Shown: positions 3,012-59,541 of the stretch, one piece after another
How positions within the stretch are numbered: position 1 is the stretch's first letter
Layout: each line of letters opens with the position of its first letter
Source of the DNA: an uncultured virus (IMG/VR IMGVR_UViG_3300020173_001350)
Taxonomy: Duplodnaviria; Heunggongvirae; Uroviricota; Caudoviricetes
Virus record (IMG/VR): IMGVR_UViG_3300020173_001350
DNA: 64,000 nt
Strand: one strand, 5' to 3'
Notes under the pieces: model-generated
Database searches by the model: none
Told to the model about the DNA's origin: nothing
Seen by the model: only the letters and a program-made list of their open reading frames with translations
Position numbers and translations under genes: made by a program

Positions 3012-5318
3012 TTAAATTGTGCAACTTTCACAGGAATCGTCGTCAATTTCGCCTTGTGCGAGTTCATCATCACCAGACATTTTATCGACATCAATTTCGC
3101 CTTGACCATCGAACGTATTAAAATAATACAATTGCTTTCCACCGTACTTATAGAACATAAGTAAGTGTTGCAATAATACGCTCATTGGAATTTTTTCATC
3201 TTCAAAGAATATTGGATTATAACTTGTGTTTACTGAAATACCTTGGTCAATATATTTCTGTAGAACAGCCATAATTTTCAGATATCCTTCGGGAGACTTT
3301 TGATCCCACAATAAATCGTATTTGTTTTTCAATCTGCGAAACTCTGGTACAACCTGCTTCAACACGCCATGCTTAGATTGCTTGACTGAGATTAAAGAAC
3401 GAGGTGGTTCTATGCCGTTTGTGGCGTTGGCAACCTGGGCACTCGTCTCTGATGGCATAAGGGCCATTAGTGTAGAGTTGCGAATACCAGTTTCTTTCAA
3501 CTGCTTACGAAGACCTTTCCAATCCATACGCTCTTGATGCTTAACCAATTCATTAAGATCTTTTTTGTATGTCTGGTTTGGAGTAATGCCATGACCATAT
3601 TTAGTTTCCATTAGACCTGAAACTGGAATAGCACCCTGTTCTACAGCCAAATCAGCTGAAGCTTTAATGAGGTAATAGGACCAAGCTTCAGCATATTCAT
3701 CAATAAGACCAAGACCTTCTGTTGTAATGTCTTGGTACGATAAATCGTGCTTAGCCATCCAATAGGCAAAGTTAATAATACCAACTCCAATAGGACGACG
3801 TTTTTCTGTAGAAAGCTGAGCAGCTAGGATAGGATAATTCTGATATGATAACAAAGCATCTAAACCACGAACAGCGAGGGTGCATGCTTTTTCAAAGTCG
3901 GCCGGTGTTTTTACGTTACCCCAGTTAATAGCAGACAAAGTACAAAGACTGATTTCACCTTCAGGATCATTTACGTCGTTTAGCGGTTTAGTTGGTAAAT
4001 CAATTTCAGCACAAAGATTTGATTGACGAATCGGTGCAACCTCTGGTAAAAACGATCCATGGTCGTTTGCGTTATCAACGTTTTGCAAATAGATACGACC
4101 CGTGTTTTTACGCTCTTCCATAAAAGAACTGAATAGCTGAGATGCTGAAATTGTCTTTTTACGCAGACGAGTATTTCGTTCTGCTGTTTCATATAGCTCA
4201 CGGAATTTATCCTGATCTGCATAAAAGGCGTCATATAAACCAGGCACATCACTCGGTGAAAACAAAGTAATATTACCACCGGTAATTAGGCGCTCATACA
4301 TCAATTTGTTGAATTGAACACCATAATCCATATGACGAACACGATTGTCTTCTGTACCTTTATTATTTTTCAATACAAGAAGATCCTCGACCTCATAGTG
4401 CCAAATAGGATAATAGATCGTAGCCGCACCACCACGAACACCACCTTGAGAACAAGATTTAGTCGCAGCCTGGAACATCTTATAAAACGGAATTATTCCT
4501 GTATGATAGGCGTCACCTTTACGAATGGGGGTTCCAATAGCTCGGATGCTCCCTCCACCAATTCCGATTCCTGCTTTTTGGGAAACGTATTTAACAATAG
4601 ATGAACTAGTAGCATTAATGCTATCGAGACTATCGCCGGTTTCGATAAGGACGCAAGAAGAGAATTGTCTTTGCGGAGTACGAACACCTGCCATAACAGG
4701 AGTAGGCAAGCTAATATCGTGTAGAGAAATGGCGTCATAATAGTCCTTTACATATTGCATCCGAGTTTCTTTTGGATATGAATTAAATAATACGGCAGCA
4801 ATCAAAATATAACACATTTGAGGTGTTTCAAAAATCTCACCGGTAACGCGATTTTGGCAAAGGTATTTACCACGAAGTTGTTCCATAGCAACATACGTCA
4901 AGTCTTCATCGCGAGCATGCTTTACAAAACTATTAATTTTATCCCACTCATCATCGTTATAATATGTAATGAGTTCAGGATCGTAAAAACCTAATTCAAT
5001 ATTACGTTCAACTAATTCTTTTACAGAGCAAGGCTCATAACCGTTATAAACTTCTTTACGAAGGCCGTAGTTAATCAGTCTACCACCAACATATTGGTAA
5101 TTAGGATTTTCATCATCAATCAAGTCAGAGGCGGCTTTAATTAAAGTTTCTTGGATTTCTTTTGTTGTAATACCATTAAAAAATTGAATTTGACTTTTAA
5201 TTTCAACTTCGCTCGGGCTTACACCAGTAATATTATCGCACGCATGGAAAACAACTTTGTGGAGTTTTTCTACGTCTAAAATTTCTTTAGTGCCATCTCT
5301 TTTAGTGACTTGAATCAT
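3012..5318 (-). CDS. nrdA: ribonucleotide reductase class Ia alpha subunit
   Basis: N-terminal ATP cone (VTKRDG), FSSCVL, SNLCAEI, C-terminal CESC. Confidence 0.97.
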   Translation of the reverse strand: MIQVTKRDGTKEILDVEKLHKVVFHACDNITGVSPSEVEIKSQIQFFNGITTKEIQETLIKAASDLIDDENPNYQYVGGRLINYGLRKEVYNGYEPCSVKELVERNIELGFYDPELITYYNDDEWDKINSFVKHARDEDLTYVAMEQLRGKYLCQNRVTGEIFETPQMCYILIAAVLFNSYPKETRMQYVKDYYDAISLHDISLPTPVMAGVRTPQRQFSSCVLIETGDSLDSINATSSSIVKYVSQKAGIGIGGGSIRAIGTPIRKGDAYHTGIIPFYKMFQAATKSCSQGGVRGGAATIYYPIWHYEVEDLLVLKNNKGTEDNRVRHMDYGVQFNKLMYERLITGGNITLFSPSDVPGLYDAFYADQDKFRELYETAERNTRLRKKTISASQLFSSFMEERKNTGRIYLQNVDNANDHGSFLPEVAPIRQSNLCAEIDLPTKPLNDVNDPEGEISLCTLSAINWGNVKTPADFEKACTLAVRGLDALLSYQNYPILAAQLSTEKRRPIGVGIINFAYWMAKHDLSYQDITTEGLGLIDEYAEAWSYYLIKASADLAVEQGAIPVSGLMETKYGHGITPNQTYKKDLNELVKHQERMDWKGLRKQLKETGIRNSTLMALMPSETSAQVANATNGIEPPRSLISVKQSKHGVLKQVVPEFRRLKNKYDLLWDQKSPEGYLKIMAVLQKYIDQGISVNTSYNPIFFEDEKIPMSVLLQHLLMFYKYGGKQLYYFNTFDGQGEIDVDKMSGDDELAQGEIDDDSCESCTI

Positions 5319-8650: not shown

Positions 8651-9502
8651 TTATTTAAACATTTTGGCTTGGGTTGCAGGACCAACGATACCGTCAGCAA
8701 CTAGGCCATTAAGTTTTTGCCATTTTTTAACTGATGTTAGCGTACCGAAACCAAAGTCTCCATCTGCAGTAATACCTAAAGCTTTCTGCATTGCAGCAAC
8801 ATCGTCGCCTTTCATACCTTTACGTAATGTACGACTTCCTGTTGATGTAGCTTCCTTTTTAGGTGTTGGGATTTCTCCACCAAGAATAGCTAACGCTTCT
8901 TCCCAACGACGTGTACGATCTTCAAGTCCAATAGTACCACCATTAATCTTTTTGGTTAATCCTTTGATGTCACCATTGTCGGCCCATTTGTCAAGTTTGT
9001 TTGTTGCCCAGAACCAACAAGCTGACTCGAGAGCTCCTCGTTCGGTTGCAACATAGTCTGCTGCTTCTTCAGCAGTCATACCTACAGTCTTGCCGAATGC
9101 TGTATAATTATTACGGCCAGTGAGCTGCTTAATACCCCTGCCGCGGAATCTCCAACCATCGCCATCTTCCACATTTCCCATTGCGCCTCGTTTACTTCTG
9201 AATTCATCTTGATAAACGTAGTTTGCAATTTTTTCAGGATTTCTAGCATATTCTTTAGCATCTCTTTTGCCCTTTCCGAAATAACGGCCAAAGACTGAGT
9301 TGAGCGCTTTTTCGCTATAATTTAAATTTTCTTCAAGCCTAGTAAAGTCTAATGACTCGTGAGCACATTGTGCCATAAACCCTGCGATTCGATTTGTTGT
9401 AGTAATATCGTATTTTTCAAATGCAGGCACCGCAGCGTCATACCACGCTTCAGGATTTTTATTCTTTGGAATCATTGCAGTAAATTGTTCTAATGTAATC
9501 AT
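8651..9502 (-). CDS. endolysin: GH19 chitinase/lysozyme domain plus C-terminal peptidoglycan-binding domain
   Basis: AQCAHES, ENLNYS, FRGRGIKQLTGRNNY, TKKINGG; PG-binding DGDFG...DGIVGPAT. Confidence 0.92.
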   Translation of the reverse strand: MITLEQFTAMIPKNKNPEAWYDAAVPAFEKYDITTTNRIAGFMAQCAHESLDFTRLEENLNYSEKALNSVFGRYFGKGKRDAKEYARNPEKIANYVYQDEFRSKRGAMGNVEDGDGWRFRGRGIKQLTGRNNYTAFGKTVGMTAEEAADYVATERGALESACWFWATNKLDKWADNGDIKGLTKKINGGTIGLEDRTRRWEEALAILGGEIPTPKKEATSTGSRTLRKGMKGDDVAAMQKALGITADGDFGFGTLTSVKKWQKLNGLVADGIVGPATQAKMFK

Positions 9503-12951: not shown

Positions 12952-13220
12952 TTTACTACCTTATCAGCAATTCGTTGACCTGCATTCTTAATAGCTCTAC
13001 GTGCCTTAATAGCACCTTTAACTGCTTTGGCAACACCTTTTGCGGTATGCTTAATACCTTGTGCAACCATAGGAGCAGCAATTGCCGCACCCACAACTTC
13101 AGGTGGAATACTTTCATTCTTTGGTACACAATTAGGTACCATCTTGTCACCTTTTTTCTTCATGCCAACCTGTTTGTAATCAGACCAGCATGCTTCCAAA
13201 TGTTGCTTGAAGCTATGCAT
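12948..13220 (-). CDS. small basic protein with capsid-targeting-like leader
   Basis: MHSFKQHLEA leader; CW..YKQVGMKKKG.KMVPNCVP. Confidence 0.65.
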   Translation of the reverse strand: MHSFKQHLEACWSDYKQVGMKKKGDKMVPNCVPKNESIPPEVVGAAIAAPMVAQGIKHTAKGVAKAVKGAIKARRAIKNAGQRIADKVVK

Positions 13221-16200
13221 TAGGTGTATCCTTCTTTAGTCTTTTAACTAATTTAGCTGTACCTTCTTCGCCTGCGCCAGCTTCTTCATTTCTTTTCTTT
13301 GATGATCCACAAGAGCTTTCATCTTTCATTGATTTTTTATTACGAACACGGTTTAATGCATTTCTAAATTTATCTTCTTTATCCTGAACACCACCGTTAG
13401 CAACAGATGCTAACTTTGCTGCTTCTTCAGACTCACCCATATTACGGCGTTTCATTTCTTTAGTGATACGCTTCATCATATGCTGAGTTGATGGCATTTT
13501 TTGATCTTGACCTTTGAATTGCTTATGTAAACTTTTTAGGTTATCATCAGATTGCTTTTTCATTTTAGCATCTTCATCAAGCTCTTCTACTTCTTCAAGG
13601 ATACGCTTTGCTTTAGAACCCTTATTTCTTACTTCTTGAGACATCTTGTTAGCATGCATAGTTAGATGGTATGCCATATGCAGATCCTTTGCCTTTTTTT
13701 GAATAGAACCATCTTTATCTGCACCTGAACTAGAATGAGAAGCATTAAAGTGTGCTTCTGCTGCCTTCTTATGATGGACTGAGGCTTGGTGATGCAATCT
13801 TTGTAAAGTTGGACTAGAAGATTTTTCGCCTGCCTTTGTATGAGCATCCGCAACCTCATTGTGATGTGCAGCAGTTTTATCATGAGCATCTGCTTGACTA
13901 CTCGTTACAGTATGACGCTTATTACCTGGCGCATCCCACTCATTCGCCGATGTGTCTTGTGTGTCACGAGAATCTTTCCCAGAAAACTTTTTAGTATGAT
14001 TCGGTGGCTTTACTGTCTGGTGTGTAAGATCTTCATCAAGTTCAAACTCTTCTTTTTTCAATTTTTTCTTTACCATACCTTGAAGACGATCATCTTCTTT
14101 GTCTAGTGCTTTGCGTGGGTCATAAGTTTTTGGATTACGATTTTTTGATCCACGACCTCTTGCAGGCTTGTCTGGTGATGGGTTTGCTCTTGCTGCCTTT
14201 ATTTTATCATATAGGCTCATTTCGGCTTCATCTAGTTCTACTTCTTCACGGATTTTAACTTTAAACATTTTTTCAACTGTTTGTTTACCCATAGTCTTAG
14301 CAAGATTAGTGATTAACCATTCGCGTGGTTCTGTATCAAGATCATCTACAAATTTAACGAATTTTATACCAGCATTACCAGATGATAGCATCTTTGCTGC
14401 TTTCATAAAGTCTGCTTTATCAATGCCACCGCTTTTCTTTGCATATGCTTCGATACTTGCAGCTGCCTTTTTCATTTGAGGCGTTGCTGCTTCATTAAGT
14501 GAGATGAATGCTTCAAACTTATCATCTAACGATTCAACAAAACCTTTATCACCTTTTTTCTTACCGTGGTTCATTACTTTTTTACCATGTGGTGTGAGGT
14601 TGCCTTTTTTATCATACATTTGATTTACTAGCTTTTTCTCAGCTGCTGTTAATTCGTCAAGTTCTACTTCCTCGTGATAATCAAATGCGCTTGATTTACC
14701 CCAAGACTTATCAGATTTACGCATATCCTTTAATTTTTTCATATTCTGTGCTAGTCTACTCTCACGTTCTGCTTTAGTGTTCTTAGGCTTGGCAGCCATA
14801 GCGTTTCTCCTAACTTCATTAACTGTTTCTACTGATTCATTAACCTTTGCAGCAAGGTCTTTATCAGCCTTACCCCATGTACCAGAGGATTTAGTAATAA
14901 ATGAATTTACTCGAGCATGTCCCCATTGTTCAGGTGTTGTTCCTGGGCGGTGACCTGTTTTCCATGCGGCAACACCACGGTTATATACTTTACGTAAAAT
15001 CCCTGCAGGCATGTCAGATTTCTTTGCTTTATCAGCTAATGATTTGCCTGCGGCATCTTCACCTAAAAAATCAAATTCTTCAGTGTAACCCATCGCTCGT
15101 GCTTTTTTTGTATGCTTTGATTCTTTTGTCTTTGCTTCTTTATCACCTGGTGCTGGCCTATATGCTGAAGGATCATCATCAGCCTTTTTAGCATTACGTT
15201 CAAAATGATCTTCACGGTCATCTTTCTTATTTTTAGCAACACCTGTGTAATATTTACCTGTTGTTTCGGTAAATTTTTCAACTGATTCCATAAGTTCAAC
15301 GATATCTTCAATATCAAACTCATTCATCTCTGTAACTTGTTTAGGTTTAAACATCTTAAACCGTTTATCAAACTTTGGTTTGTTGTTTTTATCCATAAGC
15401 ATATGTGGTCGCTTAGTTACATATGCACCCCACATCTCATTCAGATCAACAGACTCATTCTTATTATGACGTGCTTGTAATCTCTCACGTTCTTTCTTTT
15501 TAACAGAAGGTAACAATTTAATTGCCAGGTTATCAATACGTTGTTTTGAAATCTTTTCAATGCGTTTATCAATACGTTCCTTTTCCGCAGGCTCCATATC
15601 AGCATATCGTTTATTACCAGCAAGACGCTTTTTAATTATATTACGTGCTGCTTTTCTTGATCTTCTTTTCAAAACATCAATATTGGCACGGCGCCGCTTT
15701 GCCTTTTCCCGACCTCGTTTCATTTTAACACGCATTCTTCGCATTTGACGGCCGCGTTTAATACGCTGCTGTCGAGTCAAAGCTTCGTCTAATTCATCTT
15801 CTTCGATAAAGTTATCTTCGTTATATTCTTCCGACATTCCCATTCCCTTTTTAATGCTGGCCATAATGTCGGCCGCGCTTGTTTTTAGCTTACTAGGTAA
15901 TCCTGTAGTAAACTTTTTGATATTATCTGAAACAGCATACTCACGCATTTTTGATGCTGACATTCCTTTAACACCTTCAGCGTCAGGATCTCTAGCACCT
16001 GCGGATACAACTTCTATTTCATCAAATTTATATTCTTTACCATTGTATTTGTTAAGCAATGTATCCATCTCTTTATATCGGTCAGAACCAACAACGAGAG
16101 TTACCTTTTTAAATTTCTTTTGTAACTGCTGCATTAATTGAATGATTGTCTTGGCAGTTGATCTTTTAATGATTTTACCAAATGCTACCTCGGCATATTT

Positions 16201-16476
16201 GATCTTATCATTATATGACAATGGATTTTTTGTTTTATCTTGAGAATGTGTTAAAAATACAGCAGGAATAGCATTCTTTGATTTTGCTACATTTAAAACT
16301 CTATTGATAAGTTTTTCGTGCCCAGTTGTAATAGGGTTCATACGTCCCCAAGAAATAACAACCTCGCCTACTTTTGCTTCATTGATAGTAGGTTCAATAT
16401 CAATATAGTTTCCAGGATCAAATTCTTTAAATCCCTTAACCTTTTTCTTTTTGTCCTTATTGCTTTCGTCTGCCAT
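13213..16476 (-). CDS. cytidyltransferase-like (HIGH nucleotidyltransferase) domain fused to modular basic segments
   Basis: GRMNPITTGH, VVGSDR, SAGARDPD, MSASKMR; repeated EEVELDE-type linkers. Confidence 0.8.
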   Translation of the reverse strand: MADESNKDKKKKVKGFKEFDPGNYIDIEPTINEAKVGEVVISWGRMNPITTGHEKLINRVLNVAKSKNAIPAVFLTHSQDKTKNPLSYNDKIKYAEVAFGKIIKRSTAKTIIQLMQQLQKKFKKVTLVVGSDRYKEMDTLLNKYNGKEYKFDEIEVVSAGARDPDAEGVKGMSASKMREYAVSDNIKKFTTGLPSKLKTSAADIMASIKKGMGMSEEYNEDNFIEEDELDEALTRQQRIKRGRQMRRMRVKMKRGREKAKRRRANIDVLKRRSRKAARNIIKKRLAGNKRYADMEPAEKERIDKRIEKISKQRIDNLAIKLLPSVKKKERERLQARHNKNESVDLNEMWGAYVTKRPHMLMDKNNKPKFDKRFKMFKPKQVTEMNEFDIEDIVELMESVEKFTETTGKYYTGVAKNKKDDREDHFERNAKKADDDPSAYRPAPGDKEAKTKESKHTKKARAMGYTEEFDFLGEDAAGKSLADKAKKSDMPAGILRKVYNRGVAAWKTGHRPGTTPEQWGHARVNSFITKSSGTWGKADKDLAAKVNESVETVNEVRRNAMAAKPKNTKAERESRLAQNMKKLKDMRKSDKSWGKSSAFDYHEEVELDELTAAEKKLVNQMYDKKGNLTPHGKKVMNHGKKKGDKGFVESLDDKFEAFISLNEAATPQMKKAAASIEAYAKKSGGIDKADFMKAAKMLSSGNAGIKFVKFVDDLDTEPREWLITNLAKTMGKQTVEKMFKVKIREEVELDEAEMSLYDKIKAARANPSPDKPARGRGSKNRNPKTYDPRKALDKEDDRLQGMVKKKLKKEEFELDEDLTHQTVKPPNHTKKFSGKDSRDTQDTSANEWDAPGNKRHTVTSSQADAHDKTAAHHNEVADAHTKAGEKSSSPTLQRLHHQASVHHKKAAEAHFNASHSSSGADKDGSIQKKAKDLHMAYHLTMHANKMSQEVRNKGSKAKRILEEVEELDEDAKMKKQSDDNLKSLHKQFKGQDQKMPSTQHMMKRITKEMKRRNMGESEEAAKLASVANGGVQDKEDKFRNALNRVRNKKSMKDESSCGSSKKRNEEAGAGEEGTAKLVKRLKKDTPNA

Positions 16477-16485
16477 AAGATACCT

Positions 16486-17247
16486 CTATTCTCTGATTTT
16501 GTTTCTATTTATAATATTTACAGACCCTTTGGGTATAACGATTGATTCCTTTAGCTGACCTTTAAAGTTGTTCTTAAAAGATTCTAACATTTCGGCATGA
16601 TTATTATGAGTGGCACTATATTTCTGAATAGTTGATAATCTTAACCACCCAATTGCTGCTATAGGATCACAAATAGCCATTGGTATTTTAGTAAAATTTT
16701 TCCGACTGCTCATAAACCAACGATTATCAATTGCCTCGGTAACACCTACCTTTGTTACTTCATCAATCATTTTCTGCGCGGTAATGTGTGTAATAGCATA
16801 CGCATGAGAACCTGGATGAAATTTCACATCTTTAATTCTTTCGGGTTGACCTGCGGTTTTATAGTCATAGTTTTCCCATTCTCTATATTTGTATCCTAAC
16901 GCAACGATTTTGTTATCAGGAATATCCAACTTTACTTTATGAAGCATCATCCCATCGTGTTCTAATATAACAGCACATTCTTTATTCTGAACAATCCTTT
17001 GCCATAATTGTAAATGAGAAGCCATACAACCATGAGCACCAACCATCATTCTTTTAAATGATTTGATTGGAATTCCTGTTTCAGCGGTAAACTTTCTCCA
17101 CATTTGACCAGGACCACCTTGTGGTTTCCATCCTTCGTATAACTCATAATTTACTCCAAGCTTTTTACATTGCTCGGCAGCATCATTTGCGTATTGTTTT
17201 GATAGGTTATCATTAGTATAAATTATATAATACTTATTTACTTTCAT
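16486..17247 (-). CDS. glycosyltransferase family 25-like
   Basis: GCMASHLQLW...VILEHD, GSHAYAIT. Confidence 0.75.
   Translation of the reverse strand: MKVNKYYIIYTNDNLSKQYANDAAEQCKKLGVNYELYEGWKPQGGPGQMWRKFTAETGIPIKSFKRMMVGAHGCMASHLQLWQRIVQNKECAVILEHDGMMLHKVKLDIPDNKIVALGYKYREWENYDYKTAGQPERIKDVKFHPGSHAYAITHITAQKMIDEVTKVGVTEAIDNRWFMSSRKNFTKIPMAICDPIAAIGWLRLSTIQKYSATHNNHAEMLESFKNNFKGQLKESIVIPKGSVNIINRNKIRE
16506..16513 (-). promoter_or_regulatory. T4-type late promoter for the 1087-aa protein
   Basis: TATAAATA 30 nt upstream of start. Confidence 0.65.
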
Positions 17248-17941
17248 AATTAAATATCCTCATAATAGTAGGTTCTTGGATCATTCTCCTAGATGTTCCA
17301 TGTGCTAATTTATAACAAGGTCCTGTTAATGGCAATCCTTGTTTTCTTATTTTTGTCCATCGGCTGGCATTATATGGTGTAAACCAATGTGGGTTGTCAG
17401 GTGTTTCAGGAAGCGGTTTATGATTAGCCAGCCATGGTTTAGTTTTGTTCCACATTGTCTGACAAGCAGGGTCTTCTAATACATTATTAAATAAACCATG
17501 AAACCACAGATAATCCATATTTGGGCGGTTCTTCCAATATTCATCAACCAATAATTTCCACCGATCCACAATGCAATTATCTTTATCAGCATATAGAAAC
17601 CAACTTGCAACTTCGGTATCAGGTTTTGGTTTTCGGAACGCAAAGAAACCGGTTTTAGCATGAGCAGGTAACCAACTATCAAGTGGTTTATTACAAGCAA
17701 CGGTTGCATCTACCCATACTCCGCCGTATTCTTTAAGTAAGTTAATGCGAACAACATCAGACCATGCCTGAATGCTACGCCCATTTTGCGTGCCTTTGTA
17801 ATAATCCCTAAGATTTGTATTATCAAGTAATACTATTTTCCATGTAGGATTATGGTGTTTCCAACTGTCAACGCATTTATGAACAATTGGAGGTGCTGCT
17901 TTAATTCCTGTATTCCAATATATCCATAATGTTTTAATCAT
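17234..17941 (-). CDS. capsular polysaccharide synthesis protein / GT32-like glycosyltransferase
   Basis: LWIYWNTG, APPIV.KC..SW, SDVVRINLLKEYGGVWVDAT. Confidence 0.85.
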   Translation of the reverse strand: MIKTLWIYWNTGIKAAPPIVHKCVDSWKHHNPTWKIVLLDNTNLRDYYKGTQNGRSIQAWSDVVRINLLKEYGGVWVDATVACNKPLDSWLPAHAKTGFFAFRKPKPDTEVASWFLYADKDNCIVDRWKLLVDEYWKNRPNMDYLWFHGLFNNVLEDPACQTMWNKTKPWLANHKPLPETPDNPHWFTPYNASRWTKIRKQGLPLTGPCYKLAHGTSRRMIQEPTIMRIFNYESK

Positions 17942-18614
17942 AACCGAATACTTCCATATCTTTTTGAATTAACGGTTTAAGTTGTTTTACTAAATTGGCA
18001 TTCAAATATTCTTTATAATCTTTTCGTGCTGTTCTATTTTCATGCCCAAAGTTTATAGGTATGCCGAGTTTTTCCGATATAACCTTTTGTGCTTTATCCA
18101 TTTCCTCGAGTCTAAATACATCATCAACAATAAGATTATCTTTTTCATCATATACAAACTTCCATTGCGGTGCATTATGCGGAGTACGTATTTTCATATT
18201 ATTCCGCTGATATTCCATTTCCATAGCTCTAATCTGCTGTTCAAATGTCATATTTACTTTACCAGGTAGCCTTTCACGCTTCCAAATAACCTCAGATACA
18301 AATTTATGAAAAGGATTTCGGACAAATGCAAATGTATATTTAGATCCTGTGAAGGCTTTATCATTCCAAGCTTTCAATTGCCATGCTGATAAATGCTGTG
18401 TTTCACCAGTAGGTAATATTTCAGGTGTTGGTTGTCCAAAATGATACCGTGAGGCATTTATTCGCCCACCGTATTTTGTTATAAATTGCCGAAACATATT
18501 TCTTTCTTGAAAGTCAGGATAACCACATACATTACGAAGAAAGAATAATTCAACACTTGTTCCACCTGCTTTAGGAACATGGACAAAATAAGTATTGATT
18601 TCTGGGATATACAT
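17934..18614 (-). CDS. sulfotransferase (Sulfotransfer_2 family)
   Basis: FVHVPKAGGTS and FAFVRNP...FVS PAPS-binding motifs. Confidence 0.85.
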   Translation of the reverse strand: MYIPEINTYFVHVPKAGGTSVELFFLRNVCGYPDFQERNMFRQFITKYGGRINASRYHFGQPTPEILPTGETQHLSAWQLKAWNDKAFTGSKYTFAFVRNPFHKFVSEVIWKRERLPGKVNMTFEQQIRAMEMEYQRNNMKIRTPHNAPQWKFVYDEKDNLIVDDVFRLEEMDKAQKVISEKLGIPINFGHENRTARKDYKEYLNANLVKQLKPLIQKDMEVFGYD

Positions 18615-19255
18615 TATACAAACTCCTGTGGAACAACCTTATCATTCCACCAATTCTCATAATCATTTTTATAGTATTTTTTAATTCTTGTTATCTGATC
18701 TTTAGTAATAACAATTTTACTTTGTTTTTCTCTACCACCATCTTGTCGCTGCAGCGCAGGTACATCAGTGTTTGCAATTTCTGATAACCATTCACGCATA
18801 TCTGTGCTAACCTGTGATACTGTAAAGATCTTATCATATCGGTTAGGATCGTTACCTAGCCAATACGTCATTGGAAAAGAATGGTGAGAAATATCACCTG
18901 CTGCATAGTTACCTAAGTTATCAACAAAATTATCCCACCCACGATTTCTCATCTTATTATAAAATAACACTCGGTTTGTATAACAAGACACAAGTCTTTT
19001 AATAGGATCACGGATAATAGTAAACCGATAATCTACGTTACCAAATTTACCTTTTCCATGCCGATCCATGAATTTGTTATTTTGTTTTTGATGTTTTCTT
19101 TGGCTTATTGGCAATCCCCAATCATTTGCCGGGGAGTTTCTCCAATCAAATCCTGATGCTTCAAGCATCATACATTTTGCGGATGTACCGCCGCATTTTG
19201 GTATATGCGTAAACTCAACTACTTTATTGTTGATTTCAACTGTAAAGACTGGCAT
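18614..19255 (-). CDS. sulfotransferase (Sulfotransfer_2 family)
   Basis: HIPKCGGTS, IIRDPIKRLVS; likely start MPVF at 19255. Confidence 0.85.
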   Translation of the reverse strand: MPVFTVEINNKVVEFTHIPKCGGTSAKCMMLEASGFDWRNSPANDWGLPISQRKHQKQNNKFMDRHGKGKFGNVDYRFTIIRDPIKRLVSCYTNRVLFYNKMRNRGWDNFVDNLGNYAAGDISHHSFPMTYWLGNDPNRYDKIFTVSQVSTDMREWLSEIANTDVPALQRQDGGREKQSKIVITKDQITRIKKYYKNDYENWWNDKVVPQEFV

Positions 19256-19276
19256 AATATAACCTTTAAAATGATG

Positions 19277-19303
19277 AAAGGTGCCCAACTAATGAACACC
19301 TTT
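19277..19303 (-). terminator. hairpin/terminator closing the DUF1127-atpE operon
   Basis: AAAGGTGTTCA-loop-TGGGCACCTTT on minus strand. Confidence 0.5.
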
Positions 19304-19304
19304 T

Positions 19305-19312
19305 TATTTATA
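19305..19312 (-). promoter_or_regulatory. T4-type late promoter upstream of sulfotransferase/glycosyltransferase cluster
   Basis: TATAAATA. Confidence 0.55.
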
Positions 19313-19520
19313 TTACTTTACAGTCGAATGTTGACTTAGCTAATTTGACTGGAACTCCGCCTGCCTCAATGCAAGCTTCGGACCAATTAGGTTGTTTAAA
19401 CTTTTGAATTACCGCAAAAAATCCAAATGCAATACACACTACAGTTAAAAGTGTCATTACAAAGAAAGCGTAAAAACCAACCTTATCGACTATCTCAGCC
19501 GAAGGTGTTGTTGGCCCCAT
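19308..19520 (-). CDS. small single-TM membrane protein with C-terminal Cys pair
   Basis: Hydrophobic helix; C..AGG.P......FDC; abuts atpE stop. Confidence 0.6.
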   Translation of the reverse strand: MGPTTPSAEIVDKVGFYAFFVMTLLTVVCIAFGFFAVIQKFKQPNWSEACIEAGGVPVKLAKSTFDCKVI

Positions 19521-19745
19521 TTAGACAACGGCAAACATTAGCAAAAGCGCTACGAGAAATGCGAAGATTCCTAATGCTTCAGCAAACGCAATACCAACAA
19601 ACATTGTACCTGTATCTGGTTTCTTAGGCATTACTTTTAGTACACTACCAACAATCATTCCTACTCCGATGGCAGCGCCACCCATTCCGAATGTTGCTAG
19701 CCCTGCGCCAATTAAGGCACCCATTGTTGCGATATCACCGGTCAT
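19521..19745 (-). CDS. atpE: F0 ATP synthase subunit c homologue with atypical loop
   Basis: [16 protein letters not shown] helix 1; [23 protein letters not shown] helix 2 with ion-binding Glu. Confidence 0.92.
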
Positions 19746-19923
19746 TTTGCAATCTCCCGATTTCCATCATACAACGTTTCGATTCCTCTATCATACCCAT
19801 TCTTGCGAGCTCCGCTGCCGCTCGGCTGTAGCCAATCATTTGCGAATAACGATCTAGTGAAGACCACAAACCCGACAAGGGCGAAAAGACATAGTTTGCT
19901 ACTAAAGTTGTCATTAAACCCAC
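19735..19923 (-). CDS. small hypothetical protein
   Basis: Overlaps both neighbours; [11 protein letters not shown] helix. Confidence 0.6.
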
Positions 19924-20144
19924 CCTCTCAAATTATCGTTTTGATTATGAGCAATGTACCAAATATCACCTCTACTGAGACCAATATCGTTTAACTCTTT
20001 ATCAGTTAATTTAGATAATTCTTTGATGGTTTGTTTAGCTATTTTCTTTGCAGCTCTCTCTTGTTTGAAAGTTCTGTATGCTTCAATGATAGTTTCAATT
20101 GCCCTCGTTGAGTAGCTGTGGGCCATAAGGATTGCTTGTGTCAT
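19914..20144 (-). CDS. DUF1127 (YjiS-like) small protein
   Basis: ELSKLTDKELNDIGLSRGDI signature; SD AGAGG. Confidence 0.9.
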   Translation of the reverse strand: MTQAILMAHSYSTRAIETIIEAYRTFKQERAAKKIAKQTIKELSKLTDKELNDIGLSRGDIWYIAHNQNDNLRGWV

Positions 20145-20305
20145 TTCCGTTTCCTCTAATATATGTGTATGTTGTATGATCCGATCCTAGACCGTATGCC
20201 TAGGTTTAATCCTTTTTACAAATATATTTATTAGGAAAATAGGTAAATAAGGGTTACCAATTTGGAATAGCCGTTATTCGGTTTAGACAACAGTGACAAA
20301 TTGTC

Positions 20306-21091
20306 TTATGGAATAGGATTGTCTACTAATATTAAATCGTAAGTTGCACCACAACCTACTGAACCGACAGTGATAACATCAACTTTAATGTCAGTTTTTT
20401 CTGGAAACCTAAGAGGTACAGCATATTCAAAGTTTACTGGATTACCACCTTGTGATCCAAGCTGTGATTTAATATTAAATGCAGTTCCATTATCTACTGG
20501 ACGTGACATTAATCTAAAGTATGTTGGAGCATTTGTTTTATCCATTGTACAAGTCAATTGCATCAAATACGCCGTCTTACCGGCAGGAACTGTATAGGTA
20601 CTCATCAAAGTTTGACCGTTGTCTGCTAATATAATAGCGTATGTAGTTCCACCAATTGAGAAGGTAACATCATTCTCATTTTGATCGCCTGTCATATAAG
20701 CACGGTAGATACGATAAAATTCTGCGGTGGTTGTTCCACCAATTGTTGTTTCTTCTGATACGATATTATAATTTACGTCAAGTCCTTCAACAACAACTGT
20801 CTCACCGCTTTGAGACGAAGAAGCAACTGTTACTACACCCGCTGCGGTTGGCCAAGTATATACACCATTTGAACCATCCCAAATAGTAGTCGTACCATTA
20901 ATATCGTCACCTGTATGAGCGAACTTGTTGATATGAGAATATCCATCTACTTGCCCCGCAGCAATTGGAATATTAGACGCCGAACCAAATGTGTTGATAA
21001 TATTGCCGTCTTTATCTGCTAGAACAAATGCTTCAAATAAAGTTTTATTACCTTGTAAAAAAGCTTGAGTTAGTTTGTTCCAAATAGCCAT
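20306..21091 (-). CDS. hypothetical protein, probably virion structural (beta-rich)
   Basis: Thr/Gly-rich, YTVPAGKTAYL motif common in phage structural proteins. Confidence 0.5.
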   Translation of the reverse strand: MAIWNKLTQAFLQGNKTLFEAFVLADKDGNIINTFGSASNIPIAAGQVDGYSHINKFAHTGDDINGTTTIWDGSNGVYTWPTAAGVVTVASSSQSGETVVVEGLDVNYNIVSEETTIGGTTTAEFYRIYRAYMTGDQNENDVTFSIGGTTYAIILADNGQTLMSTYTVPAGKTAYLMQLTCTMDKTNAPTYFRLMSRPVDNGTAFNIKSQLGSQGGNPVNFEYAVPLRFPEKTDIKVDVITVGSVGCGATYDLILVDNPIP

Positions 21092-29506: not shown

Positions 29507-30190
29507 TTAAATCTCCTCGAATAGCACGTTATTTACATATTCATCTTTATCTTTTTCGGATATACCCATTGCTAAAATAGATCTATGAAGATGCGGATTA
29601 AGCTTTTGATTTTGACAATACTTATTTAATAGAGGTGTTGTTTCACGCCGACTGTAAAATGTGTTATCATCAAGGTTGTCGAGATAATAATCTACCAAAT
29701 CAGTTGTCACTTGTATAAACTGATTAAGCTCATCATCAGTATTAATATTACCAACCGCAAGCATATCACTTGAAAAGATTTCTTTTGCCCACGGTGGTAA
29801 TTCACGTGGTTTATTCCATTCTAGGTTAGCAACTCGCCGTTCCATATAATCATGGTAAGGATGTGCAAAACCTAACAATGGTGAAAAGTCCATAAATGAT
29901 CCTGTAATCTTTTTGGGACCGGCAACAATATCAAACCCAAGAATAGGTAATTCAATATTTGCTTTTGGAAATACGTTAACGTGCATCAACCATAAACCTT
30001 TACCGTTTTCTGGTACAATGGTTTTCAAATGCGCTTTGTAGATTTGATCTGAATTCCAAAAGGTATCAGTCCATCCAGGAAAGTGCATATCATCAGTATA
30101 TTTTTGGTTATCATATCGCTTAAACTTATTATCAAATGAATTTGATATGTATTCAGCATAGCTGTTAAGCCGATCCCATAGTGGTGTCAT
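29507..30190 (-). CDS. pcyX: ferredoxin-dependent bilin reductase, PcyX-like
   Basis: MHVNVFP...PILGFDIVAGPKKITGSFMDFSP, RELPPWA..IFS, YCQNQKLNPH; near heme oxygenase. Confidence 0.85.
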   Translation of the reverse strand: MTPLWDRLNSYAEYISNSFDNKFKRYDNQKYTDDMHFPGWTDTFWNSDQIYKAHLKTIVPENGKGLWLMHVNVFPKANIELPILGFDIVAGPKKITGSFMDFSPLLGFAHPYHDYMERRVANLEWNKPRELPPWAKEIFSSDMLAVGNINTDDELNQFIQVTTDLVDYYLDNLDDNTFYSRRETTPLLNKYCQNQKLNPHLHRSILAMGISEKDKDEYVNNVLFEEI

Positions 30191-30424: not shown

Positions 30425-30964
30425 TTATGACAATTCATCAAATAATTTTGAGGCAAATTCAAAACACTTTTTTGCCTCGGGTGCCATGCTATCGTCAAGA
30501 AGTTTTCTAAACTCTGAGATAAGCAATTCTTTATCACCTTCAAACTCATACATAGTACCTGAGCCCGGTGCTTTCTTTTTGATTATTTGTCCACCGTGTA
30601 GTTCACCAAAATGCCTAGTATACATATGGGCAAGCAAACCATGATTGTTTTCAGATTCGGTAAGTTGACCAATATGGTTTTGGTATTCTTTTACGGATGT
30701 TGGTAATGCCGATGGGTGGCCAAATCCGTGTAGTTTTTCGAGTTCCTGCATATCAGCTTTGATACGGTCCGCTCGATATATAGCATTGAGATTAGGTGGA
30801 ATAATAACAGCATTTTCAAGTGGTGTATAATTGTGCCATTGGCAGACCAGGAATATATAATATTCGTAGTCCGATAACTCGCCTCTTAAAAGCTTACGAG
30901 CAAATGCCCGCCGTTCTGCTGCTTGATGATGATCCCACGTTAATTTTTTCAACTCGTTGCTCAT
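30425..30964 (-). CDS. hemO: heme oxygenase
   Basis: LKKLTWDHHQAAE (proximal His), AHMYTRHFGELHGGQII. Confidence 0.9.
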   Translation of the reverse strand: MSNELKKLTWDHHQAAERRAFARKLLRGELSDYEYYIFLVCQWHNYTPLENAVIIPPNLNAIYRADRIKADMQELEKLHGFGHPSALPTSVKEYQNHIGQLTESENNHGLLAHMYTRHFGELHGGQIIKKKAPGSGTMYEFEGDKELLISEFRKLLDDSMAPEAKKCFEFASKLFDELS

Positions 30965-36075: not shown

Positions 36076-37059
36076 TTAAAAATTGTCAACCATTTCTTGG
36101 GTGGCTGCCAACTCAGGATCACTTACTAGTCCATATTCAGCAAGAGGGCTATCGGGACCAGCCATATCATCAGAAACAAAGAACTGGATATATTCCTTAA
36201 GACCAGGAATAAAATCAATATGCTCCATTTTTACATAAAACTGCAAAGGGCGAGAGATTGGATACTCACCAGATGCAATTGTTTCAGTTGAAGGCGCAAC
36301 ACCATTTACATTTGCAGCATAGATTGAATCTGTATTATTCAACAAGAATGATAGACCAAACACGCCAATACCTTCTGGGTTATTTTTCAAACGATTTAAG
36401 GTTTCAGTATAGTCACCATCAATATCAATGCTTACACCATCAGTACGAACTTTCATACATTCTTTTTCGGCTTTCTTTTTATCTCCACCATTCTGTTTAA
36501 AGAACAAGTCATATGAACCGGCTGATTTACAACCTGATACCATAACCTTCTTATCAAACACTTCACGTGTACCATGCTTGGTACCTGGAATAAATGTTTT
36601 GATTGGACGATCCGGAAAGTTTGGATCTACTTCTTTCCAGTTTTCTGCATTTGATTTATTTGAAATTGCCAAATAGATATGCATAGGTGTAATGTTTTCA
36701 AACCCTTTAGTTTCTAAGCGGCTTGCAAATACGATACCATCATATCCAATACGAACTTCAACTGGCTCACTTACACCATTTGAAGCACACCGTGCAATAT
36801 CTGAATCTTTAATGTGTGATGATGAGTTTGCTATATCAATAGTGTTTGCGCCAACACCCTCACATAGTCTTTTACGTCCAGCACCTGAGCCACCTGATTC
36901 GATTACTGGTGTTGGAAAGTCAAAGTTTTCTCCAAAAGCCTCTGCAACAATTGCTGCATAGGGTAATACTGTTGAAGATCCAGCTACGTGAACTTGGTCA
37001 CGTGCAGTTGCCATAGTGGCAGTTGCTATTATAGCAACCATTAAGCTTAATAGTTTCAT
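36076..37059 (-). CDS. pstS: phosphate ABC transporter substrate-binding protein
   Basis: Signal peptide, AGSSTV.P, GGSGAG, IGYDGIVF, YPISRPL.FYVK. Confidence 0.92.
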   Translation of the reverse strand: MKLLSLMVAIIATATMATARDQVHVAGSSTVLPYAAIVAEAFGENFDFPTPVIESGGSGAGRKRLCEGVGANTIDIANSSSHIKDSDIARCASNGVSEPVEVRIGYDGIVFASRLETKGFENITPMHIYLAISNKSNAENWKEVDPNFPDRPIKTFIPGTKHGTREVFDKKVMVSGCKSAGSYDLFFKQNGGDKKKAEKECMKVRTDGVSIDIDGDYTETLNRLKNNPEGIGVFGLSFLLNNTDSIYAANVNGVAPSTETIASGEYPISRPLQFYVKMEHIDFIPGLKEYIQFFVSDDMAGPDSPLAEYGLVSDPELAATQEMVDNF

Positions 37060-37183: not shown

Positions 37184-37594
37184 TTACAGCGCTTTATCTA
37201 AATTACCATGATTACCTTCGTGGCTAGGTGCTGTCCATCCAGAAGGTTTCAATAGATCTGGAAGCCCAAACGGATTAGGACGCCCCGGCTTAATTCCAGG
37301 CTCTTTTGCCATGTTAGCACTATAAACACGATCCCAAGCGTCATTAGCATCAACACCAAATACGTCGAGAGTGCCAATAGCAAAAACGCAAAGGTCAATG
37401 AGACCATCAACGATCTCTTCAGAATCTCCATTATTATATGCAGTAAGTGTTTCACTGAGTTCCTCCTGACACATTAGCAAACGGAACATAAGATACTTAC
37501 GCATCAATTCCTTATTATCTTTGTTTTCTTCAAACCAATCACGCACACCAAATTTGTTATGCATCATATAGATATCGTTTACCCAATCAGTCAT
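37184..37594 (-). CDS. MazG-like/PRA-PH nucleotide pyrophosphohydrolase
   Basis: QEELSE...EEIVDGLID...V..ANM.K...DL.KP.GW..P. Confidence 0.8.
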   Translation of the reverse strand: MTDWVNDIYMMHNKFGVRDWFEENKDNKELMRKYLMFRLLMCQEELSETLTAYNNGDSEEIVDGLIDLCVFAIGTLDVFGVDANDAWDRVYSANMAKEPGIKPGRPNPFGLPDLLKPSGWTAPSHEGNHGNLDKAL

Positions 37595-56171: not shown

Positions 56172-56470
56172 TTCTTTTTTCCTCCTAGGATTTTAACACC
56201 AGCTTTTGCTTCAACGGCATTTAGCCGGCGCTCCATATCATCAATCTTTTGAGTGATTTTTGGATACTTCTTTCGCCATGCGTCTTCAGGTTGTTCAAGC
56301 CAGGTTAAACCCCAGCGCTCAACTAAGTAATCAATCATCAAATCAAATTTAGCATAGCCCCATAGTCCAATGCGTGTTGTACTCAAATATGCAAGTACAA
56401 CTGCGCCAATTATGGATCCGCCAATTGCGGTGTAGATCCATAACGTGTCTTCTAGCATTCTATCTATCAT
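56168..56470 (-). CDS. membrane-anchored hypothetical protein
   Basis: N-terminal TM; coupled to lipase. Confidence 0.65.
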   Translation of the reverse strand: MIDRMLEDTLWIYTAIGGSIIGAVVLAYLSTTRIGLWGYAKFDLMIDYLVERWGLTWLEQPEDAWRKKYPKITQKIDDMERRLNAVEAKAGVKILGGKKK

Positions 56471-57200
56471 TATTTTGCTCCGTGTATTTGCAGTAATGGT
56501 TCATACCGTGGTCATATGCACCATCAAAAGGCATACCTTTTTTCAATGCTCTCCAACGGCCGCGCCACTTGTCTTTAATTCTTTGCCACTTCGACATTTT
56601 TCTAATATTACCGTAGTAATTAATATAACGTGGTGGGCAATGATGTCTATAGCCAATAAGTGCAAACGGTACAGTTGTTACCAAATCATTATTGTTGACA
56701 TGGCGATAGTGAGTAACATTTTTAAAACTCTTGACGAATTTACGAGTACCAACTCTCGGTGATCCATATGTATATAATGCCACAGGATTCCAAGGACCAT
56801 CAGCCAAACGAGATGTTGCAATTGTTGCCATTGCACCACCTAATGAATGTCCGCATATGAATAGGTCTTTAGGTTTTGCCTTTGCCAATGCTGCTTCAAT
56901 TGCAACCCATACTTTATCAACTTCTGTTTGAAAACCGTTATGGACAAGACCTGATCCGTTGTTTGCTTTGTCGGGCATAGCATTTAGATCTGCTTTAATA
57001 TCAGAAAATTCACCAGGCTCTGTACCACGGAAACATAAAACAATTTCGTTCTTATTCTGAATAAGGTGTACCTGAGCACCATCCTTTTCAATAAATTTAT
57101 GTTGTGTATAACCTAACTTTTTATATTCAGCTTTTGCTTCTTTACCGTCCATATATGCTATTTGAGCACACTGGGCCATAGTTGCGCATTTTTCTATCAT
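56460..57200 (-). CDS. lipase class 3
   Basis: FRGT, VHNGF, GHSLGGA, YGSPRVG, NNDLV, DH.M. Confidence 0.9.
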   Translation of the reverse strand: MIEKCATMAQCAQIAYMDGKEAKAEYKKLGYTQHKFIEKDGAQVHLIQNKNEIVLCFRGTEPGEFSDIKADLNAMPDKANNGSGLVHNGFQTEVDKVWVAIEAALAKAKPKDLFICGHSLGGAMATIATSRLADGPWNPVALYTYGSPRVGTRKFVKSFKNVTHYRHVNNNDLVTTVPFALIGYRHHCPPRYINYYGNIRKMSKWQRIKDKWRGRWRALKKGMPFDGAYDHGMNHYCKYTEQNNDR

Positions 57201-57502
57201 TTGTTAATCCCCTTTAGTTTATCTTTTAACGAAGATGTAGTGGTTTTTGTTTGTACTCGGGATTTGGCGTCGTCCCATCGTAAGTCACCACTGGACAATA
57301 CTTTGGGCTCGGACATATCTTGCTCGGCCTCATGGGAAGGCGGATAATCAATCTTGTAGCGATCTCTTGCTTGTTGAAGTCGTCTTGATGTTTCATTCTG
57401 TCTTTGAGCCCAGTATCTTTCAATCATATTCTCCGTGAACCGTTTGTCTATTTGTTCATCAATATAATTTTTAAAGAACATTTCAAATAAAGTTCTAATC
57501 AT
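57197..57502 (-). CDS. hypothetical protein
   Basis: ATGA-coupled between cyclase and lipase. Confidence 0.55.
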   Translation of the reverse strand: MIRTLFEMFFKNYIDEQIDKRFTENMIERYWAQRQNETSRRLQQARDRYKIDYPPSHEAEQDMSEPKVLSSGDLRWDDAKSRVQTKTTTSSLKDKLKGINK

Positions 57503-59541
57503 TTTGTGGTCGCAATAAATACGCCGTTCCAATCTTCTGGAAGGTCTTGTGTTTTCATATATTCACATCTTTCTTTCCACATATCATAATATCCGTCCAT
57601 TTTATTATCAAAGTGGCCATGTAATATATCACATAGTTCAATAGCTTTATCAAAATCTTGTGCTTGATACGCAGCAAACATTTCTTGGTGTTTTTTCTGT
57701 GCTGCATACCATGGTTGTTTTACATCATCAAGTGCTGTCCAAATTCCAATTCCTACCGATTTACCTTTGACTGCCAAGTCGTCGATCTTGAGGTAAAAGA
57801 ATTCATCAGCTGTGTGGCGTTGCGTTTCTTCTCCAATGAGGAGTACCATTCCATATTCTTTACATTTAGACTCAATTCTTGCTGCTGTTGATACAGCATC
57901 CCCAAGTATGTCGTAGCTGTGCCGCTTACTACTACCCATCTCCCCAATGTAACCCAGGCCAGAATTAATACCAGCACCCATGCCCACTGGCGGCCGGTTA
58001 CTTCTTTGAAGTGCCACATTAAATTTCTCCACTGCTTTCAGCATTTTGAAAGCCACTTGCACCGCGGTTCGTGGGTGGTCAGGATCATCTATCGGTGCGT
58101 TGTGAATATGCATTGAAGCATCGCCGATATACTTAATAATCATGCCATTGGCATCTAATACTGGTTCGGTTATTGCATCCATATAACCATTCATAATCTC
58201 CGTTAAGCCTTTAACATCATCGCCAAAGCTTTCTCCTAAAGGAGTAAAACCGCGAAGGTCACTGAATACTATTGATACGTCTTTCTTTTGCCCATCCTTA
58301 ACTAACGACGGATTTTCTTGTAATAACTTAACAACCGTTGGTGAAGCGTAACCCGCGAATTGTTTTTTGATTGCTTGTTTCTGTAAAAACTCGTCTACGA
58401 ATTTTACAATATATCGTAAACTACCAACAAGGAACAGCATAACAGAAATAGTGATGCCGTCAATAAGTAAATTTGAACTTTGGAATACATAGATAGACCC
58501 TCCTATAAAGCCGCCAATCGTTAATACGAATGCGCCGATGCCTATAAAAGTCCAATAGGATAAACCAATTATTAATAGCCCTGCTACAATTAGAGCAGCC
58601 AGTTCACCCCATGCTTTTGCATCGGCGTGACGTGTGATGTTTGACTCATTAAATACAGTACCAAGCATTGCTGCTTGTATTTCTTGTGGATATACTCCAC
58701 CAACCGCAGTTGAAATCGGTTGAATAGTACCTGCAGCTGTTGGTCCAACAAATACTACAGCACCTCCTAAATCATCTGGCAAATTCATTATTGATTCTGA
58801 TTGATAACCTTGAGACCAATCTATCCATACCTCGCCAACCTCATTTGTTGGTATCATTCCAAATTGTGGTATTCTTAATTTATCAACCCCGAGCGGCGAC
58901 AACTTGATTTGGAAGGATGGGTCTCCGGCAAGGACTCGCAATACCTCAAGGGTGACATTAGGGAAGAGGTTCCCCCCGGACTCGAATACCAACGGTGCTC
59001 TGCGGGTAACCCCGTCGATCTCTGGGAATGTGTTGATGATTCCTGACCCCACTGCATTAGTTTCAAGCTCATTGATGTTAGCGATAATCCCAGGTACACT
59101 TGGAATGAGAGAAATATAATCGCTATTAATAATAGAGGCTCCTGGATTAATCGCTTCATTTTTGTTCTCCTCAGCTCCAAGCATGGTTAAAATTATTGGT
59201 ACTTGCTGCATAGTTATAGCAAGGTCTTCATCTCCGCCGGATCTATCAGGTTCAGACATAAGAATATTTAAAACAACAAGACCTGCACCTCTATTGTACA
59301 GATCTATAATAAATTCTGAGTATACTTGTCTAGGAAATGGCCATTGTCCATATTCGGTTATTGCATCTTCATCAATGTTTACTGAATAAATGTTATTTGG
59401 GACAACCTCTTGATTTACAATAAGCTGGTCAAAATACCGTAATCTTAAACTTTCAATGAATGAAGGATTAATAGTATGCAGCCAAGCAAGTAACCCTAAC
59501 AATAATATGCTCCATATAGGAGATAATAAAATATTTTTCAT
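57499..59541 (-). CDS. CHASE2-domain class III adenylate cyclase
   Basis: CHASE2 GQWPFPR, SEPDR, DGVTRR; TM helices; FSDLRGFT, IKYIGDA, YDILGDAVSTAARIE. Confidence 0.92.
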   Translation of the reverse strand: MKNILLSPIWSILLLGLLAWLHTINPSFIESLRLRYFDQLIVNQEVVPNNIYSVNIDEDAITEYGQWPFPRQVYSEFIIDLYNRGAGLVVLNILMSEPDRSGGDEDLAITMQQVPIILTMLGAEENKNEAINPGASIINSDYISLIPSVPGIIANINELETNAVGSGIINTFPEIDGVTRRAPLVFESGGNLFPNVTLEVLRVLAGDPSFQIKLSPLGVDKLRIPQFGMIPTNEVGEVWIDWSQGYQSESIMNLPDDLGGAVVFVGPTAAGTIQPISTAVGGVYPQEIQAAMLGTVFNESNITRHADAKAWGELAALIVAGLLIIGLSYWTFIGIGAFVLTIGGFIGGSIYVFQSSNLLIDGITISVMLFLVGSLRYIVKFVDEFLQKQAIKKQFAGYASPTVVKLLQENPSLVKDGQKKDVSIVFSDLRGFTPLGESFGDDVKGLTEIMNGYMDAITEPVLDANGMIIKYIGDASMHIHNAPIDDPDHPRTAVQVAFKMLKAVEKFNVALQRSNRPPVGMGAGINSGLGYIGEMGSSKRHSYDILGDAVSTAARIESKCKEYGMVLLIGEETQRHTADEFFYLKIDDLAVKGKSVGIGIWTALDDVKQPWYAAQKKHQEMFAAYQAQDFDKAIELCDILHGHFDNKMDGYYDMWKERCEYMKTQDLPEDWNGVFIATTK

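Follow-up and report, generated by a model that had tools for sequence, protein, structure and literature searches.

The 64,000-nucleotide stretch of DNA considered here (hereafter, the window) derives from an uncultured virus of the Caudoviricetes (IMG/VR IMGVR_UViG_3300020173_001350) and contains, on its minus strand, a gene for a c subunit of ATP synthase. The gene stands third in a compact run of four on that strand: it is preceded by genes for a DUF1127 small protein and a small helical protein designated orf62, and is followed by the gene for an orphan membrane protein designated TM70, with which it closes the operon (Table 1). The encoded protein, referred to as phage c, keeps the helices and the ion-binding glutamate of its family; however, its loop is shortened and lacks the Arg-(Asn/Gln)-Pro motif (R-(N/Q)-P), a loss shared by every viral relative sampled and by none of the Rhodobacterales genome loci. 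It may be a rotor subunit that is blind to F1.

Phage c matches Pfam PF00137 (ATP-synt_C) with 48.4 bits against a cut-off of 24 (expectation value, E, 1.1e-12), and the match covers residues 12–69 and all 60 profile positions. The glycine repeat of helix 1 (GxGxGxG) is present in the window protein as G20, G22, G23, G27, G29, and G33, and the ion-binding Glu56 sits in FAEALGIF, a motif retained in 81 of 81 viral copies. The best match in the PDB is the Paracoccus denitrificans c subunit (5dn6_J, E 2.2e-16). An AlphaFold2 model (mean predicted local distance difference test score, pLDDT, 81.7) consists of a helix at residues 2–38, a six-residue turn at 39–44, and a second helix at 45–72; when it is used as a Foldseek query, the top rows are all c subunits, with 5dn6_J first (template modelling score 0.63), and none reaches E 0.001. 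Against the two NCBIfam equivalog profiles for AtpE, NF005733 and TIGR01260, phage c scores 67.6 and 25.6 bits, under the respective cut-offs of 85 and 43.95, which the AtpE of Planktomarina passes with 110.4 and 45.6 bits. Phage c genuinely belongs to the c-subunit domain family, yet it is without the defining features of a working AtpE.

An earlier note on this DNA, made from its letters alone, had described a loop devoid of Arg-(Asn/Gln)-Pro and about five residues shorter than those of the Rhodobacter type, together with a conserved Glu in FAEALGIF. The window translation bears out the missing motif and the retained Glu, and the shortening is seen both as a five-residue HMMER gap against 5dn6_J and as the same five-column gap against Rhodobacterales AtpE. 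Alignment with viral and cellular homologues further shows the loss to be phage-specific and conserved. The viral set comprises 81 loci, namely 80 of 82 IMG/VR relatives and G001, the nearest related virus contig, while the cellular set holds the best 80 loci from species-representative bacterial genomes, all of which are Rhodobacterales. R-(N/Q)-P occurs in none of the 81 viral loci, whereas ALRNP is kept in all 80 cellular loci (75 scored by script and the remaining five by inspection). All 401 Rhodobacterales genomes that were searched whole contain a c match, none of them above 74% identity, and the eight best loci keep the motif.

When metagenomes were scanned with the viral forms closest to the host type as seeds, the c open reading frame (ORF) was recovered in 73 of 80 loci. 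Sixty-six of these carry the motif and none of the 66 lies beside TM70; seven are without it, and all seven lie beside TM70. No intermediate, in the sense of an R-N-P copy adjoining TM70, exists among the 73 metagenome and 81 viral loci. Within 5.8 billion proteins, 911 match phage c: matches of 73–75 residues at 82–95% identity all lack the motif, and the AtpE proteins of Neptunicoccus, Amylibacter, and Rhodovulum, at 63–70% identity, carry GALRNPSAA. Cellular AtpE with the phage-type loop, a possibility that the earlier note had raised, was found in neither the genome, the 401-genome, nor the metagenome set.

Selection on the gene was estimated from distinct coding sequences, 51 of them viral and 68 cellular, as the ratio of nonsynonymous to synonymous substitution rates (dN/dS, Nei–Gojobori), with synonymous sites near saturation in the comparison. 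For helix 1, the loop, and helix 2 in turn, the ratios are 0.133, 0.177, and 0.040 across all 51 viral sequences, 0.097, 0.091, and 0.037 among the 43 of the short-loop class, and 0.198, 0.089, and 0.067 in the 68 cellular sequences. Phage c is under purifying selection and the shortened loop is itself constrained, with no sign of decay. That the gene is a functionless leftover of host capture, decaying or wrongly called, would account for the missing motif and for nothing else; this view is ruled out by ratios far under 1 at near-saturated synonymous sites, by reading frames that are intact in 81 of 81 viral loci (one being cut solely by a contig end), and by conserved gene order and overlapping starts and stops, such that its probability is vanishingly small. 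The neutral decay that the earlier note had envisaged as an alternative is likewise at odds with viral values of 0.04–0.18.

The viral genes also appear to share a single history. Their mean guanine–cytosine (GC) content is 43.5%, against 61.8% for the cellular genes, and thus the gene has long been resident in phage DNA. When the loop columns are left out and a maximum-likelihood tree is built from the remaining 60, a number that limits its resolution, a single branch (Shimodaira–Hasegawa-like approximate likelihood ratio test 95) sets the 45 distinct viral proteins apart within Rhodobacterales AtpE, with full-length-loop viral forms basal and the short-loop class derived (support 94). The tree indicates that the viral c genes stem from one acquisition out of Rhodobacterales. 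Viral c proteins are graded in length by their loops, from 78 down to 73 residues, and 19 of the 21 columns that are diagnostic between viral and cellular proteins fall in residues 30–50, the F1-facing cytoplasmic cap; the rest of helix 2 (residues 51–73) contains no diagnostic difference. Phage c shares with the Rhodobacterales/Paracoccaceae AtpE (5DN6 chain J) its Pfam family, hairpin fold, ion-binding Glu, and helix 2 beyond residue 50, and the viral clade nests inside this group. The two differ in that the cellular protein has R-N-P, whereas phage c is without it, is five residues shorter in the loop, and falls under the equivalog cut-offs; and in that cellular atpE lies in the atp operon and is followed by subunit b′, whereas the phage gene lies outside any atp operon and is followed by TM70.

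In each of the 81 viral loci TM70 adjoins the c gene and, when loci are instead found by TM70, the c gene lies just upstream in 65 of 65. It is thus an obligate, phage-only partner of the c gene. Its AlphaFold2 model (pLDDT 82.3) consists of a helix at residues 6–41, a short helix at 46–52, and a beta hairpin at 55–69, and the end domain contains two invariant Cys residues. TM70 belongs to no family in Pfam, PHROGs, NCBIfam, or PADLOC. A word-index search of 5.8 billion proteins yields 48 clusters of relatives, none of them named, and an exhaustive profile search of 1.84 billion proteins yields seven representatives; the best score in an Atlas search is 0.85, under the lead level, and Foldseek returns no structural neighbour (best E 4.5). 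Lys plus Arg counts of 1.11 in the N-terminal flank and 1.91 in the C-terminal flank are too weak to set the topology, and a prediction of two c copies in complex with TM70, made with alignments and without controls, scores 0.00 and weighs neither way. In one viral subgroup (L026, L028–L030, L034, L044–L064), TM70 is only about 49–60 residues long and has no Cys-bearing end domain; the c loops of this subgroup end in DNST rather than DTGT, and the shortening and the altered loop look like a single evolutionary event. Origin of TM70 and orf62 as captured pieces of a host atp operon (subunits a, b′, or b) was considered and rejected on profile searches of 10,646 ORFs from 80 cellular atp loci, in which TM70 has no match at E 10 and the best orf62 match has E 0.009; the DUF1127, orf62, and TM70 profiles found nothing in those loci.

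The operon is compact. The start of orf62 is probably the ATG at 19914, giving a protein of 59 residues and overlapping the DUF1127 stop as TAATG; the c gene start overlaps the orf62 stop by 11 nucleotides, and the TM70 ATG abuts the c stop as TAAATG. DUF1127 and orf62 are each present in 77 of 81 viral loci, and the four loci in which DUF1127 is missed all have less than 250 nucleotides of upstream flank. In anatomy, the reading of the earlier note fell short, having overlooked both the obligate membrane partner and the four-gene operon, while its comparative predictions held. The orf62 family is exclusively viral (Atlas) and, with 392 viral relatives, wider than the c gene: among the best 80 orf62 loci, 24 have the c gene, 54 are without it, and two are too short to tell. 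The DUF1127–orf62 pair is accordingly wider and older than the c–TM70 pair.

This arrangement bears on the possibility that phage c acts as a decoy or inhibitor outside energy coupling, in which its c-like hairpin and TM70 would bind and block another c-recognising component of the host membrane (the YidC or AtpI assembly route, a defence sensor, or subunit a on its own) or serve as a membrane scaffold for operon proteins. It suits such a role that the pair heading the operon is common without the c gene, that the slot after it has other cargo in other phages, and that TM70 has no relatives beyond its 48 clusters and seven representatives. Such a role would, however, leave unexplained why the ion-binding Glu and the residues around it are so strictly conserved, and no match at E 0.01 or better to any of the four operon proteins is found in PADLOC-DB, albeit this library covers defence and not counter-defence. 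A decoy role is very unlikely on this evidence, as are the individual targets proposed for it.

Table 1. Positions of the operon, its control elements, and other features of the window.
Feature	Position	Strand	Details
Phage c gene (gene 3)	19521..19745	-	74 residues; ATG 19745-19743, TAA 19523-19521
TM70 (gene 4)	19308..19520	-	70 residues; predicted single-pass membrane protein; orphan, small Cys-containing C-terminal domain
DUF1127 small protein (gene 1)	19914..20144	-	76 residues; Pfam PF06568, 39.5 bits against 23.3; phrog_26566
orf62 (gene 2)	19735..19914	-	small helical protein; conserved G-Y/R-S/A-R-A-A motif
Terminator-like hairpin	19277..19303	-	11 pairs, then T-rich tail; directly 3′ of TM70
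Conserved upstream motif (TAATAAATA...TTGTA)	20217..20233	-	candidate promoter element; about 75 nucleotides before first operon ATG
5′ leader	20177..20204	-	7-base-pair hairpin 20186-20204, then invariant TCGGATCA box 20177-20184
Surface-sugar gene run	13213-19288	-	directly downstream of the operon
Tetrapyrrole genes	626-1825; 29507-30190; 30425-30964	-	
Endolysin-like protein	8651-9502	-	glycoside hydrolase 19 part and peptidoglycan-binding part
PstS-like phosphate-binding protein	36076-37059	-	
MazG-like pyrophosphohydrolase	37184-37594	-	
Class-3 lipase	56460-57200	-	
Sensor-cyclase	57499-59541	-	680 residues; CHASE2 sensor domain and adenylate/guanylate cyclase domain

Candidate control elements flank the four genes. 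Many related loci keep the TAATAAATA...TTGTA block ahead of their DUF1127 gene, and it may resemble a T4 late promoter; TAATAAATA shows no enrichment in the window (four matches against 2.6 expected). The leader hairpin was assessed on an alignment of 10 distinct leaders, which includes L003, L016, L019, L077, L079, L080, L245, L262, and L286 as well as the window: 91% of cells are paired, against 15%–43% with a slid partner, six of the seven pairs change on both sides, and the covariation is 0.705 against 0.369, a value that none of 500 shuffles reaches. The hairpin and its TCGGATCA box are also present in phages without the c gene, and no Rfam family matches within 19000-20500. Terminator-like sites number five in the scanned region, against 1.2 expected.

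Sixteen RNA-labelled sequencing runs contain this stretch, and all four of those examined cover the operon; the data are assembled contigs of up to 53 kb, in which DNA carry-over is possible and the depths of which cannot rank genes. In the RNA library X3, one 826-base contig spans 19298-20123 without a mismatch, nearly the exact extent of the four genes, and has a depth of 50 against 0–9 for its neighbours, which strains sharing the conserved operon could also explain.

The surroundings of the c gene vary among related phages. In L074, L075, and L078 (about positions 3700-4000), in which the c protein has 77 residues, orf62 is absent and an acidic protein of about 55 residues is found instead, together with a 40-residue single-helix peptide, immediately ahead of the c gene. 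In L247 (1684-2091; also in L249), a phage without the c gene, the slot after DUF1127–orf62 holds a 135-residue protein that, with its heme-binding CxxCH motif and signal-like start, resembles a c-type cytochrome; energy genes of host origin may gather in this slot. Downstream of the operon, the surface-sugar run includes two sulfotransferases, a capsule-synthesis glycosyltransferase, a family-25 glycosyltransferase, and a 1087-residue protein with a cytidylyltransferase-like part. Its content varies among related phages, whereas the operon stays constant.

The window belongs to a T4-like myovirus, as it encodes UvsX, gp41, gp43, gp46/47, gp32, gp59, UvsY, and topoisomerase II, and its DNA polymerase is about 44% identical to those of cyanomyoviruses, the closest cultured relatives. 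G001, a contig of 221,447 base pairs rated complete, has 75% of the window's sampled words in common and carries an identical c gene. Pfam scans of 11 and 62 ORFs found no other atp gene in the window, in agreement with the earlier note, and the complete G001 genome likewise yielded no subunit a, b, gamma, epsilon, or alpha/beta. Among cultured phages, a tblastn search of 50,697 phage records with phage c gave no match at E 1e-3, in a set that may omit the window's own or near genome. The c family is nevertheless frequent in marine and salt-marsh data, in which it occurs on 82 viral contigs and in single protein clusters of up to 183 members.

As to the host, Rhodobacterales are suggested by the c gene, and the cellular loci include members of this order with low GC. 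The tetrapyrrole genes of the window encode 5-aminolevulinate synthase (TIGR01821, 563.7 bits), a ferredoxin-dependent bilin reductase, and heme oxygenase; this set matches that of aquatic phage contigs described in PMC11480375, where contigs similar to the window phage and carrying 5-aminolevulinate synthase are grouped with pelagimyophages. The sensor-cyclase, an unusual protein to be phage-borne, matches phrog_35576, a family without a name, from end to end.

It is the retention of the ring and proton-handover parts, the rewriting of the gamma/epsilon surface, and the absence of a phage stator or F1 that lead us to read phage c as an F1-blind rotor subunit, one that uncouples host F0 or makes it leak, with a probability of roughly 0.45. 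An ancestor of this T4-like phage group would have taken atpE from a Rhodobacterales bacterium and would have kept the parts that build the ring and carry protons past host subunit a, with only the cap gripped by the gamma/epsilon foot being rewritten. In the infected cell, phage c would be made together with its dedicated TM70 and would either join host c-rings or build rings of its own. Rings containing it would turn and pass protons but would be unable to hold F1, and protons would then flow with no link to ATP synthesis, through an F0 that is uncoupled or leaky. We infer that phage c inserts into the membrane, forms rings, and meets host subunit a, that F1 no longer docks, and that the proton-motive force is affected; as for what the phage would gain, superinfection exclusion, lysis timing, and the stopping of reverse ATPase action are our guesses. 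The earlier note had proposed an uncoupling or dominant-negative rotor component, and its comparative side has held (the motif in none of the 81 viral and in all 80 cellular loci, dN/dS of 0.04–0.18, and failure at the equivalog cut-offs), while its physiological side is one that we, too, can only infer.

Several known systems are relevant to this reading. F1-stripped bacterial F0 leaks protons, and polar-loop mutants of subunit c uncouple F0 from F1. In the polar loop of the Escherichia coli subunit (Arg41, Gln42, Pro43), changes break F0–F1 coupling; these affect the same loop, but are laboratory point mutations, whereas in phage c a loop shortened in nature and kept by selection is found in a second copy of the subunit, borne by a virus. 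The mitochondrial c-ring leak channel (Mnatsakanyan et al. 2022, PMC9433415) embodies the same principle, in that a c-ring uncovered by F1 conducts ions and dissipates the gradient; the purified human c-ring is described there as a large channel that is closed by F1. In mitochondria, F1 is lost by stress-induced dissociation of the normal enzyme, whereas in the phage the docking surface would have been removed genetically and a partner added. T4 Imm, Sp, holin T, and antiholin RI resemble phage c and TM70 as small phage inner-membrane proteins, and may have a purpose in common with them; they show no sequence likeness in PHROGs, and phage c, unlike them, originates from a host rotor subunit.

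A number of observations weigh against an F1-blind, uncoupling rotor. Firstly, the phage carries genes that sustain respiration (those for 5-aminolevulinate synthase, heme oxygenase, and bilin reductase), and a relative carries a cytochrome c-like gene; respiration-supporting genes fit simple uncoupling poorly unless the effect is timed or partial. Secondly, if the host were SAR11, the Rhodobacterales-like helices of phage c would not be host-matched. Thirdly, basal viral loops retain a Pro followed two residues on by Arg or Lys (e.g., MPHRS), and for these basal forms an altered F1 contact, rather than a lost one, is conceivable. Finally, G27 or G29 of helix 1 is replaced in 33 of the 51 distinct viral sequences, all of them short-loop (G27A in 21, G29A in seven, and G29S in five), whereas neither glycine varies among the 68 cellular c subunits or the 66 metagenomic ones that bear the motif. 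The size of a c-ring depends on the helix-1 glycine repeat according to the review PMC7594442, and the replacements may argue for a ring of the phage's own and against seamless mixing into host rings.

Energy-supporting genes would suit an ordinary auxiliary metabolic gene, a spare part that tops up c subunits after host shut-off and whose loop would be free to drift, host subunits in the mixed ring giving enough F1 contacts. Phages often copy host bioenergetic parts, and auxiliary metabolic genes derived from host energy machinery, such as cyanophage psbA, keep their host function. Like psbA-type genes, the phage c gene serves membrane energetics in origin, stems from a host, and is maintained by selection in a marine phage of the T4-like kind, and its ring-building and ion-binding parts are retained. 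The loop is, however, not drifting, given a dN/dS of 0.091 in the short-loop class; the motif has been lost from every viral copy and kept in every cellular lineage sampled, the protein fails at the AtpE equivalog cut-offs, and an obligate orphan partner would be needless. Unlike psbA-type genes, phage c has thus lost its defining functional surface and gained an orphan partner. A topping-up role is quite unlikely.

The glycine replacements may point to a ring of altered size. It is possible, albeit on balance unlikely, that phage c and TM70 form such a ring free of F1, with TM70 on the cytoplasmic face or in the lumen, as a gated conduit for protons or other ions; that this conduit is the bacterial-virus counterpart of the mitochondrial c-ring leak channel, setting the membrane potential on the phage's schedule, is similarly doubtful. 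In its stand-alone form, the ring would never meet the host stator and TM70 would be its plug, cap, or trigger, the pair acting like a viroporin or holin through timed depolarisation, for lysis timing or superinfection exclusion. Obligate pairing with an orphan single-pass protein is in keeping with such a gated pore, as is the replacement, in 33 of 51 viral and in no cellular sequences, of ring-packing glycines on which ring size depends (PMC7594442), and purified c-rings without F1 are reported to conduct ions (PMC9433415). A pore of this kind would need neither Glu56 nor a tight helix 2, yet FAEALGIF is kept in 81 of 81 viral copies and dN/dS in helix 2 is 0.040. PHROGs has no family for phage c or TM70, so that neither matches a described holin or superinfection-exclusion family; the pair is unlike the holins and exclusion proteins known there and does not adjoin the endolysin-like gene. 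We regard both the stand-alone pore and its holin-like action as tentative and rather unlikely.

Few biological machines have been studied as closely as ATP synthase. Full-text searches found no phage-encoded c subunit in the literature, and ATP synthase is unmentioned in the text and eight supplementary files of PMC11480375 that cover related phage contigs. A virus-borne ATP synthase subunit built to take part in the machine and yet to ignore F1 is undescribed in the searched literature. If the F1-blind rotor reading is true, it would represent a new route of host takeover, by which a phage edits the coupling of an energy converter instead of adding capacity to it. It would also provide a natural experiment on the c-subunit loop and glycine motif, with a graded series from 78 to 73 residues, and would put to an independent test the contested view that c-rings leak once uncovered. 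As the c family is common in marine data, any effect that it has would bear on energy handling in infected marine Rhodobacterales.

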